A program made the position numbers and the translations under genes. The notes below the pieces were generated by a model that worked only from the letters and a program-made list of their open reading frames with translations, did not search any database and was not told the DNA's origin. Shown piece by piece: positions 11,786 through 13,605 of a stretch of DNA of 24,000 nt. Source of the stretch: an uncultured Chloroflexia bacterium (GTDB lineage: Bacteria; Chloroflexota; Anaerolineae; CG2-30-64-16); NCBI GenBank assembly GCA_963774265.1, contig CAVZDU010000002.1, positions 663,694 to 687,693 of the forward strand, read 5' to 3'. The first letter of the stretch is position 1. The number at the start of each line of letters is the position of its first letter.

Positions 11786-12070
11786 CTATCCGCAACTCGG
11801 CGTTGACTGGCGAAGGAGCGCGGCGCGGAACATGGCCGCGGCGCAACCGACGCCGCTCTCTACACGGATGGCGCCTTCCGGGCAGTTCACCTGGCAGGCG
11901 CCGCATTCCATACACGCCTCGGGCCGGACCAACTGCACCGCCCGGCCGTCCCGGGCGCCCCGACCGTTGCGGGCGAACACGCCATGCGGGCAGACGGCAA
12001 GGCACATCCCGCAGCCGTTGCACGACGCCGGGTCGAACTGCAGTGTATTGGCTATCGATACGTCGAACAT
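11786..12070 (-). CDS. hgcB: HgcB, 2[4Fe-4S] ferredoxin partner of the mercury methylation system
   Basis: 94 aa. Two CX2CX2CX3CP motifs (CNGCGMCLAVCP, CMECGACQVNCP), the GVGCAAA motif and a C-terminal Cys (PSCG). Its ATG overlaps the hgcA stop (TGATG). Confidence 0.85.
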   Translation of the reverse strand: MFDVSIANTLQFDPASCNGCGMCLAVCPHGVFARNGRGARDGRAVQLVRPEACMECGACQVNCPEGAIRVESGVGCAAAMFRAALLRQSTPSCG

Positions 12071-13088
12071 CACGCGCCTCCCCAAAGCTTGATCACGGCC
12101 CCGACCAGCATCAGCACCAGGCCGCCCCCGAACATCCCTGCCATGATCGGCGCATATGCAAATATCTCGCGGCGCACGCCGGTCCGCGAGGTAAAGGTCG
12201 TGGAGCCGGTGAAGTTCAGCGCCACGAATGCGGTCACCGCCGGCCAGATCAGCACTTGCGACAGCGCCTTGGCCGTGCGCAGCCACCACGTCAGGTCGGC
12301 GTTGTGTTGGAAGACCAGCAGGGCAAAGGGCAGCGCCACCAGGAAGCCGACGATGAACCCCTTCGTACTGAAGTCGTGGGTGGGTATCCAAGGTAACACG
12401 ATAGGGAACAACACGATACCCGCAAGAATGGCAGTCGCCGCGGCTGTCAAGGACAACCAGCCGCCGAGCAGATAGGCGACGGCCATGGCAATGGCGAGCG
12501 GCAGAAGGCCGCCGACAATATCCACCGGGATGACGACCAGGCGGTCGGTCAGGTTGAAGCGCACCCGGCGCATTTCCGGCGTTGCATGATGGGTCTTCAG
12601 GTACTCCGGCAGATCGGCTGCCCGCACCGGGCCATATTCGACCCTGAAACCGGTGCGCTGCTTGACCTCGTGTGCGGCGATGCCGGGCGCACCCAGTTGC
12701 GGCAGGATCAGCGTGCGGTGGTTGACGATGTCCCGCAGTCCGGACGCCTCCACCTGGCGCACCAGCTCGTCTGTGCCGAAAGTGCCTTTGCCCGCGGCGC
12801 ACCACACATTGACGCCCTGGGTGTCGAGGACCAGGATGTAGGCATCTCTTTCGATCAGAGCCGAGCGCAGCGCGTCGAAGCTCAACGTATAGTTGGCCGT
12901 GACGAAGACCGGGGCCGTCAGATCAGGCTGCCCAAGGACGTACAAGCCCGGCTCGATCCGGTGCCCGCCCCGGTTGACCCCCAGCGCGCCAGCCAATGAT
13001 CCCGGTGGTCCGCCGCTGTGAGCCGGCTGCTGGTCGAGCGGACAGCCGGCTGTTGCGAGAGGCTAGTGCCCTCCAAGTTCAGCGTCAT
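12070..13088 (-). CDS. hgcA: HgcA, corrinoid protein of the mercury methylation system; apparent 1-nt deletion in a G-run near the 5' end
   Basis: The cap-helix signature GVNVWCAAGKGTFGT is followed by a hydrophobic multi-helix C-terminal domain. The intact ORF is 12070..12996. The ATG at 13088 has an AAGGAGGAAAAGG RBS and encodes ...RLTAADHRDHWLARWG, which joins VNRGGHRIEPGLY only if the C5 run at 12978..12982 gains one base. Confidence 0.85.
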
Positions 13089-13149
13089 CCTTTTCCTCCT
13101 TCAAAGCGAGAGGGAGCGCATGGGTGTGCCCCCTCGGCCATGCCCGCGG

Positions 13150-13605
13150 CTACGCCGCGCAGCAATTGTTCGCCAACTTCTCGACGGTTGCCGTCAGCCG
13201 ATCCAGCATTCCCACGATGGCGGTTTGTTCGCTCTCAGAGTAGCCGGTAAAGGCCTCCGACAGAAGCTGCCGCTTACTTTGCTGCACACGTTCGGCGGTG
13301 GCCTGACCCTGGGCGCTGAGCGCCACCCGGACGATCCGGCGATCCTCGGGGGCCGGCCGGCGTTCCACCAGCCCTTTTTCGACGAGCGCATCCGCCATGC
13401 GGGTCATCGTCGTGCCATGCAGTCGCATCGCCGCGGCAAAGTCATTCATCGTTAGTGCACCAGCCTCCTGCAAGGTCAACAAGGCGTAGGCCTGCGACAC
13501 GGTGAGGTCACAGCACGTCACGAGGGCACGGTCGCAACACTCGAGGTTGCGCTGCAACCGGCGCGTCAGACGATCCAACTGGTCGAGCATGATTTCTTCG
13601 GGCAT
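13150..13605 (-). CDS. MarR-family winged-helix regulator with three vicinal cysteine pairs
   Basis: 151 aa. MarR-like wHTH region LTMNDFAAAMRLHGTTMTRMADALVEKGLVERRPAPEDRRIVRVALSAQG. CC pairs occur at ECC, TCC and the C-terminal NCCAA. It ends 61 nt upstream of hgcA on the same strand. Confidence 0.9.
   Translation of the reverse strand: MPEEIMLDQLDRLTRRLQRNLECCDRALVTCCDLTVSQAYALLTLQEAGALTMNDFAAAMRLHGTTMTRMADALVEKGLVERRPAPEDRRIVRVALSAQGQATAERVQQSKRQLLSEAFTGYSESEQTAIVGMLDRLTATVEKLANNCCAA

Follow-up and report, generated by a model that had tools for sequence, protein, structure and literature searches.

A cysteine-rich MarR-family gene upstream of hgcAB in a Chloroflexota lineage: a candidate metalloid-responsive operon for mercury methylation

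The stretch of DNA examined here, referred to below as the window, comprises 24,000 nucleotides (nt) of contig CAVZDU010000002.1 (positions 663,694 to 687,693) from an uncultured Chloroflexia bacterium. Its minus strand carries, head to tail, the genes marR, hgcA and hgcB (coordinates of all features are given in Table 1). An earlier reading made from the letters alone, called here the sequence-only reading, had proposed that the product of the first gene, a MarR-type protein rich in vicinal cysteines, is a different kind of candidate metal sensor for the hgcAB mercury-methylation pair. We found the three genes kept together in a close clade of contigs, behind a promoter shared with related marR genes that precede arsM, and the cysteines of the regulator aligned with those of a family of As(III) sensors. 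These observations are consistent with an hgcAB operon under the control of a trivalent metalloid.

Judged by profile scores and motifs, HgcA and HgcB are the mercury-methylation pair. The open reading frame (ORF) 12070..12996 contains GVNVWCAAGKGTFGT followed by a hydrophobic C-terminal half, in keeping with the HgcA cap-helix signature and membrane domain originally read there. It scores 409.6 bits on the HgcA_corrinoid model NF040863 (an NCBIfam equivalog, cutoff 275), whereas the HgcAB-like fusion model gives it 208 bits, short of the cutoff of 285, and NF003195, the model for the gamma subunit of the acetyl-CoA decarbonylase/synthase complex, gives it 73 bits (cutoff 306). On profile scores (409.6-435 bits on the HgcA model, the upper value after the frame repair described below, against 73 bits) the protein is thus an HgcA and not a corrinoid protein of the acetyl-CoA pathway. 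In the repaired protein the cap-helix motif NVWCAAGK occupies residues 94-101, with the Co-ligating cysteine at 97. Hydrophobic segments are strong over residues 182-264 and 309-339 and weaker at about 270-300 in a Kyte-Doolittle scan, which fits about five helices. The hgcB ATG overlaps the hgcA stop codon by one base. HgcB carries the expected pattern, CNGCGMCLAVCP and CMECGACQVNCP (two CX2CX2CX3CP clusters), GVGCAAA and a C-terminal PSCG, the pattern including the conserved cysteine some 12 residues past the second cluster motif (Cys73 in ND132). Its score of 99.7 bits on NF040864 is a marginal pass (cutoff 99), the alignment ending at profile position 83 of 93; both ORFs therefore lie above the curated cutoffs.

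The MarR assignment also held, with a match to PF01047 at 58.3 bits (gathering cutoff 24.6). In Pfam and NCBIfam only MarR-type models matched the protein, and no match was obtained with the ArsR/SmtB models HTH_5 and HTH_20. Its six cysteines all belong to three vicinal pairs, E22-C23-C24, T30-C31-C32 and N147-C148-C149, as had been noted. An AlphaFold2 model (mean confidence, pLDDT, 92.9) has the elements of the MarR topology in order (helix 1, helices 2-4, beta wing, helices 5-6). It places C23/C24 and C31/C32 on the long helix 1, which spans residues 3-32, and C148/C149 where helix 6 (124-149) ends. In MarR proteins, helix 1 and helix 6 build the dimer interface. The best match in a sequence search of the PDB was the MarR protein 2rdp (E 1.6e-21), and the search returned generic MarR structures only, none of them with the three cysteine pairs.

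At least 65 homologues of MarR at 48% identity or more were obtained by a word-indexed search, and the few that carry a source name come from metagenome-assembled genomes (MAGs) of Chloroflexi/Chloroflexota or Dehalococcoidia. The cysteine pairs are kept among them: in 56 aligned full-length members, C24 is present in all, C23 in 54, C148 in 53, C32 in 51 and C31 in 44. Most family members end in CC and, in most, the conserved pairs are the sole cysteines. The context of the C-terminal pair differs between the hgcAB-linked proteins, with the motif (N/S)(N/D)CC(A/S)A, and their arsM-linked relatives, with xQCCG or RCCxx. Binding of an iron-sulphur cluster by these cysteines was considered and rejected, since a vicinal CC pair ligates such clusters poorly and arsM is the gene that goes with the family.

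Genomic contexts were read through 12 single-protein look-ups, a small survey, and scans with a profile of the MarR alignment gave at least four loci in genome contigs and at least two in metagenome contigs. A close clade with 83-93% MarR identity comprises seven contigs: the window, five others labelled L005, L015, L016, L017 and L018 (L016 and L017 are probably one population), and a JGI contig (3300075153). In all seven, marR is followed after 59-61 nt by hgcA (339 codons where intact) and then by hgcB, so that every close homologue with a readable context is linked to hgcAB. The flanks differ. Upstream we found genes for an alpha/beta-hydrolase and MalT-like regulators, for CitMHS, for a histidine kinase, for Fur and ferrochelatase or, in the window, for a 509-residue protein next to an IS5 element; downstream were MetE-like genes with OsmC, an MR_MLE gene or a radical-SAM gene. 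Since the trio is kept while both flanks vary, marR-hgcA-hgcB behaves as a module, and chance adjacency of marR and hgcAB was rejected on the same grounds.

The proposed linkage of this MarR to hgcAB therefore stands for one tight clade but does not extend to the family, most of which is linked to arsM instead. Outside the close clade, each family member whose context could be read is followed by a gene other than hgcA: arsM lies directly downstream of marR in ten distinct loci of the wider family at 48-73% identity (L001, L002, L003, L004, L006, L008, L014, L022, L024 and L026), where the clade of the window has hgcAB. Two of these arsM genes were scored and gave 285 and 296 bits on the arsenite methyltransferase model NF008823 (cutoff 263). 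In a neighbour-joining tree the hgcAB-linked MarRs form one tight clade nested among arsM-linked lineages, which suggests that control of arsM is ancestral in this MarR lineage.

Two loci of the family have contexts of their own. In L004 (283..3864, a Chloroflexia MAG contig), arsM-like sequences flank the marR homologue on either side, in three or more distinct tblastn matches. Tandem copies of arsM are suggested, although frame breaks also occur in the contig. In L021 (4001..5714), a basal CC-rich MarR (P0039, 57% identity) precedes a fragmented gene of the URO-D family, which is neither arsM nor hgcAB. The URO-D family includes methylcobamide:thiol methyltransferases, and URO-D genes also occur near the loci in L008 and L027; the L021 gene could be a third kind of methyl-transfer gene under a CC-rich MarR.

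A single promoter-like site, TTGACA-N17-TACACT (10 of 12 positions matching), was found on either strand over 11400..14000, upstream of marR, and it is conserved in nine marR loci, hgcAB-linked and arsM-linked alike. Inverted repeats overlie it. One, TGTA-N7-TACA at 13646..13660, spans the promoter spacer and the -10 hexamer; the other, ATCTGTAATATACATAT at 13627..13643, has a TGTA-N3-TACA core just downstream of the -10 hexamer, and its counterpart in L008 is ATCTGCATTATACAGAT. The TGTA/TACA cores are kept across the nine marR promoters, and a separate arsM promoter in L008 repeats the same palindrome as ATCTGTATTGCACAGAT. With at most one mismatch, CTGTANNNTACAG occurs once in the window against an expectation of 0.23, and at least one match was obtained in 20 of 100 shuffles. 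From its position and conservation, this repeat array is a putative operator to which MarR would bind.

The same scan (11400..14000) found no promoter-like or terminator-like site between marR and hgcA. In the arsM-type loci scanned (L008 and L014), marR ends in a terminator composed of a hairpin and a T-run, and in L008 a second, operator-bearing promoter follows this terminator ahead of arsM; the hgcAB-type loci scanned have neither a marR terminator nor a second promoter, their short spacer holding a GC-rich hairpin that lacks a T-run and a strong Shine-Dalgarno sequence. Because the only promoter lies upstream of marR and none lies in the spacer, we infer that transcription from the autoregulated marR promoter reads through into hgcAB, marR-hgcA-hgcB being co-transcribed as an operon. 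The spacer hairpin (about 13110..13135) recurs in most relatives, L015 and L018 folding in another way; with z-scores between -0.2 and -2.3 and a single compensatory pair in five sequences its support is weak, and a conserved functional RNA element is not claimed. The hairpin could be a remnant of a marR terminator.

As for the ligand, the closest described proteins are those of the MarR_ars type, defined by Yu et al. 2021 (bioRxiv 10.1101/2021.08.12.456183) with AdMarR_ars of Achromobacter deleyi As-55 as founder. AdMarR_ars represses marR and arsV and binds the promoters of both; As(III)/Sb(III) releases it, and the mutations C36S, C37S and C157S each lower its As(III) response; the published targets of the type, arsV, arsN and arsP, confer organoarsenical resistance (bioRxiv 10.1101/2021.08.12.456183). 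Among plasmid-borne proteins, the best relatives of the window's MarR are encoded in arsenic islands. On a Pseudomonas nitroreducens plasmid the order is marR-arsN1-FAD oxidoreductase-arsD-arsA, and on a Paenibacillus plasmid marR and a permease gene adjoin arsN1, trxB, arsR and a gene for an arsenic transporter. The Pseudomonas protein aligns with the window's MarR over almost its full length (32% identity, E 1e-18), its C36/C37 falling on C31/C32 and its C157/C158 on C148/C149; the Paenibacillus protein has a CC at the position of C23/C24 instead. The equivalence of C31, C32 and C148 to the AdMarR_ars cysteines is drawn through the Pseudomonas plasmid protein and rests on the identical residue numbering C36/C37/C157. 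Among the 136 nearest representatives of 50%-identity clusters (from 1.84 billion proteins), 67 combine a cysteine where helix 1 ends with one in the C-terminal tail, a raw count without a background control.

With MarR_ars the window's protein thus shares the fold of an autoregulated repressor (the regulation being predicted here), a vicinal CC near the end of helix 1, a C-terminal cysteine and a family that adjoins arsenic genes. It differs in its low identity of about 32%, in a near-invariant additional ECC pair (C23/C24) and usually a C-terminal CC, and in its partner genes, which are arsV, arsN or arsP there and the methylating enzymes arsM or hgcAB here. As(III) sites of three thiolates including a vicinal pair, comparable to the candidate site here, are known from AfArsR (C95/C96/C102) and CgArsR (C15/C16/C55), which are built on the ArsR/SmtB scaffold and not on that of MarR. 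Such vicinal-cysteine As(III) sites in ArsR proteins lie at the N- or C-terminal dimer edge, not on the DNA-binding helix, and have arisen independently several times. Given the partnership with arsM and the alignment with the MarR_ars cysteines, a trivalent metalloid of the As(III)/Sb(III) type is the best candidate and probably the ligand of MarR. The idea of a thiol-based metal(loid) sensor outside ArsR is strengthened by these results, the wider family standing upstream of arsM. The regulator is a different candidate in being a MarR and not an ArsR; as a type of sensor it is less new than had been thought, since MarR-type As(III) sensors are known (bioRxiv 10.1101/2021.08.12.456183).

Taken together, these results favour, with modest confidence, a metalloid-sensing and autoregulated marR-hgcAB operon of MarR_ars type, whose regulator lineage ancestrally served arsM. 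One sigma-70-type promoter upstream of marR would drive the three-gene module. MarR, a dimeric winged-helix repressor of MarR_ars type, would in its unliganded form occupy the TGTA/TACA repeats over the -10 hexamer and the start-site region, silencing both marR and the hgcAB pair that is reached by read-through. The ligand would be a soft trivalent metalloid (As(III), Sb(III) or methylarsenite are the most likely), held by thiolates of C31/C32 at the end of helix 1, perhaps also of C23/C24, together with C148/C149 at the C-terminus; its binding would change the dimer and release MarR from the DNA, so that hgcAB is expressed. The MarR lineage would ancestrally have controlled arsM, encoding an S-adenosylmethionine (SAM)-dependent arsenite methyltransferase, and in one clade hgcAB would have replaced arsM directly behind marR without bringing a promoter of its own, the direction of this swap being suggested by the tree.

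Other ligands for the same cysteines have to be weighed. Vicinal thiols bind Hg(II) avidly by established chemistry, the genes in question are those of mercury methylation, and the hgcAB-linked MarRs are a separate clade with its own C-terminal motif; the six thiols might then form a bis- or tris-thiolate site for Hg(II) or methylmercury and place the enzyme under substrate or product control. We consider this quite improbable: all three pairs are inherited unchanged from the arsM-linked relatives, so there is no ligand gain specific to the hgcAB clade, and the cysteines that could be aligned have their counterparts in an As(III)/Sb(III) sensor. Nor is a redox or thiol-stress switch probable, in which, as in MarRs of the OhrR, MosR or HypR type, oxidation, electrophiles or sulfane sulfur would derepress and metalloids would play no role. 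Many MarRs do use cysteine oxidation, E. coli MarR itself responding to Cu(II)-driven oxidation of Cys80 (reviewed in bioRxiv 10.1101/2021.08.12.456183), and the window's protein matches OhrR-type NCBIfam models weakly (34 bits against a cutoff of 200). Throughout the family, however, the recurring partner is arsM, which encodes a metalloid enzyme, rather than a gene for a peroxidase or for thiol repair; the cysteine positions fit the As(III) triad of MarR_ars and not the sensing cysteine of OhrR, and the hosts appear to be anaerobes with hgcAB.

Several points nevertheless weigh against a metalloid-responsive operon. Hg(II) and Cd(II) are likewise bound by sites rich in thiols, which are also open to oxidation. 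The MarR_ars-like character was assigned by alignment, at only 32% identity to an ars-island MarR, and the best-conserved pair is C23/C24 and not the pair aligned with AdMarR_ars, which leaves the ligand set uncertain. Scans of the 24-kb window with Pfam and NCBIfam models found no ars or mer gene. The GC-rich hairpin between marR and hgcA could cut read-through. With hgcA frameshifted and its neighbourhood decayed, the module may be non-functional in the source genome. Finally, deletion of hgcAB in Pseudodesulfovibrio mercurii ND132 caused no significant loss of arsenic resistance (bioRxiv 10.1101/2022.10.17.512643), so that a signal from arsenic does not by itself imply that the function concerns arsenic.

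The frameshift was missed by the sequence-only reading, which took hgcA as the plain ORF 12070..12996. The true start of hgcA is the ATG at 13088, in a different frame and preceded by GAAGGAGG; the distance of 61 nt to marR given in that reading is correct for this ATG but not for the ORF, which starts 153 nt from marR. The frame from 13088 reads MTLNLEG...DHWLARWG, the HgcA frame goes on VNRGGHRIEPGLY..., and the two meet at a run of five G at 12978..12982, leaving the N-terminal 31 codons in the other frame. Since five relatives have GGGGGG or GGGGGA at this place, the window's hgcA carries a 1-nt deletion. Insertion of one G restores a protein of 339 residues that scores 435 bits and covers profile positions 1-324 (21-324 for the unrepaired ORF); HgcA of the complete relatives likewise has 339 residues (340 in one) and starts 59-61 nt after marR. 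From the sequence, the deletion would be either an assembly error or an inactivating mutation.

If it is a mutation, the module would be a decaying remnant in the source genome and hgcA a true pseudogene, with no regulation of mercury methylation there, whatever the relatives do. This is a serious possibility, though the less probable case. Besides the difference in the G-run itself, the gene call of the source record, which also annotates only the 308-codon hgcA ORF, agrees with it; so do the MetE-like gene, convergent with hgcB in relatives and down to about 40 codons here, the adjacent B12-binding radical-SAM gene split by three frame changes, and the insertion sequence (IS) elements and recombinases that crowd the window. 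G/C homopolymers in the window show no systematic compression (20 runs of five and 4 of six or more), as in short-read contigs; with 91 and 22 such runs in the short-read contigs, compression as proof of a sequencing artefact gave no signal either way. Against a pseudogene, the lesion is one base in a homopolymer, the remaining 308 hgcA codons are intact and 86-94% identical to relatives, and the source contig is 909,551 bp long. Moreover, other assemblies with 'contig_N' names, presumably from long reads, carry different frame breaks in the same genes, a pattern that indel errors typically leave. The break in L005 is at residue 118/119, and L015 has three, one of them in marR. The frame changes of the radical-SAM gene, upon inspection of the runs around the breaks, are not at runs of five or more bases, and they do not settle the choice between sequencing error and decay.

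Regulation of hgcAB by an arsenic-type sensor has a precedent. In ND132, hgcAB is under an ArsR-like, arsenic-responsive repressor, and hgcAB genes are often found near ars genes, arsM included (bioRxiv 10.1101/2022.10.17.512643; PMC7438021). The ArsR2-hgcAB arrangement of that strain (Goni-Urriza 2020; Gionfriddo et al.) shares with the window a gene for a small, cysteine-rich winged-helix repressor directly upstream on the same strand; co-transcription with hgcA and a response to arsenic are reported there and predicted for the window's MarR. The proteins differ in family, ArsR/SmtB (PF01022) with a four-cysteine site against MarR (PF01047) with three vicinal pairs on helix 1 and at the C-terminus, and in host, Desulfovibrionaceae against Chloroflexota. 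The nearest outgroup HgcA (72% identity, on L027, locus 4452..8573) has upstream an ArsR-type PF01022 gene with the motifs LCCCQW and DCCG; downstream on the same strand follow genes for a sigma-70-family (ECF-type) factor and a CMD-domain protein and, at 1.6 kb, an arsM-like methyltransferase gene. The regulator upstream of hgcAB thus differs between related Chloroflexota lineages, both kinds being tied to arsenic.

A MarR gene next to hgcA is not in itself new, which reduces the novelty first attached to the locus. For two cultured methylators, Dethiobacter alkaliphilus and Geobacter daltonii, Zhang et al. 2023 (PMC10349881) refer to genes of the MarR family that lie upstream of hgcA. These genes share with the window the position of the regulator immediately upstream of hgcA; they differ in being mentioned in a neighbourhood survey without analysis of cysteines, ligand or family, and they are not among the 65 word-sharing homologues. 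McDaniel et al. (PMC7438021) list an unnamed putative regulator, of unstated family, upstream of hgcAB in 112 genomes including Chloroflexi, and an overlap with the window's MarR is possible.

The single terminal cysteine of HgcB, singled out in the sequence-only reading as a departure from the usual pair, is real but hardly unusual. The tail ...TPSCG is identical in four relatives, and the outgroup ends in ...EPVCG. In ND132, mutating one or the other C-terminal cysteine alone has no effect and the double mutant loses 95% of activity (PMC7305189), so that one cysteine is enough there and its being single is no sign of lost function. HgcB also carries a 6-residue insertion at residues 38-43 (window 11936..11953, minus strand), reading NGRGARDGRAVQL where L015, L016 and L018 have NGRTVQL. 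It sits in the loop between the two Fe-S motifs, at a point where L005 carries an insertion of its own, of 4 residues; the inter-cluster loop thus varies in length within a very close clade.

The control of hgcAB and the purpose of HgcAB are open questions in mercury biogeochemistry, and the sole regulator tested so far is the arsenic-responsive ArsR-like protein of one Desulfovibrionaceae strain. With the window, another phylum would supply a second sensor family, of unrelated structure, that has been connected to hgcAB. If arsenic-type sensors were recruited twice independently, the link between arsenic and mercury would look selected and not accidental, and arsenic-type control of mercury methylation would gain independent comparative support. 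The system is compact and testable, with a repressor of 151 residues, a 50-bp operator region and three cysteine pairs, and it predicts that exposure to arsenic or antimony could modulate the methylmercury output of soil and sediment Chloroflexota. It would also extend the MarR_ars type of sensor to arsM, a pairing absent from the targets named in the founding paper.

The proposed replacement of arsM by hgcAB further raises the question whether HgcAB acts on metalloids. Since hgcAB fills the arsM slot with the same sensor lineage, promoter and operator, the swap, if it reflects functional equivalence, would tie the native role of HgcAB in this lineage to trivalent metalloids and not to mercury, Hg methylation being a side reaction of an arsenic-induced enzyme. 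HgcAB could then methylate or otherwise handle As(III)/Sb(III), or make toxic methylarsenite as a weapon. HgcAB was recently shown to use SAM as methyl donor, like ArsM (PMC11588087). We regard this extension as very unlikely and mention it as speculation.

Table 1. Positions in the window of the marR-hgcAB module, its regulatory sites and the mobile-element genes
Feature	Position	Strand	Description
marR	13150..13605	minus	151-residue MarR-family winged helix-turn-helix regulator, MarR_ars-like; PF01047 match
hgcA	12070..13088	minus	corrinoid protein with membrane domain; frame broken by a 1-nt deletion; longest intact ORF 12070..12996
hgcB	11786..12070	minus	94-residue dicluster ferredoxin; NF040864 match
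marR-hgcA spacer	13089..13149	minus	61 nt; GC-rich hairpin without T-run; Shine-Dalgarno GAAGGAGG at 13095..13102
marR promoter, sigma-70-type	13644..13672	minus	TTGACA, 17 nt, TACACT
operator-like inverted repeats over the -10 hexamer	13627..13660	minus	putative; conserved TGTA/TACA cores
IS4/IS5-type DDE transposase	2206..3345
IS91 Y2 transposase	5518..6534
two tyrosine recombinases	6528..7400 and 7419..8528
IS5 transposase	15234..16145

Judging from its gene content, the marR-hgcAB module sits in a rearrangement-prone region, mobile-element genes being dense at 2206..8528 and 15234..16145. Two large minus-strand ORFs, 13846..15375 (509 residues) and 17393..19474 (693 residues), have no match in Pfam or NCBIfam; the former lies directly upstream of the marR promoter, and its exact sequence is absent from a collection of 15 billion proteins.

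On the other side of the module, L005, L016 and the JGI contig carry an intact Meth_synt_2 (MetE-like) gene convergent with hgcB, with another MetE-like gene and OsmC after it. The window has lost most of the convergent gene by deletion, and a remnant at 11604..11766 (plus strand) retains about 40 C-terminal codons (11647..11766) at 90% identity and a fragment of 13 codons. Next to it, the B12-binding radical-SAM gene (10159..11550, plus strand) resembles HpnJ, BchE and PhpK, with all model scores below cutoff, and its three frame changes fall within about 400 nt. A 60-nt direct repeat, 98% identical, brackets this gene (10184..10243 and 11662..11721) and corresponds to the 3' end of the MetE-like gene that adjoins hgcB in the relatives.

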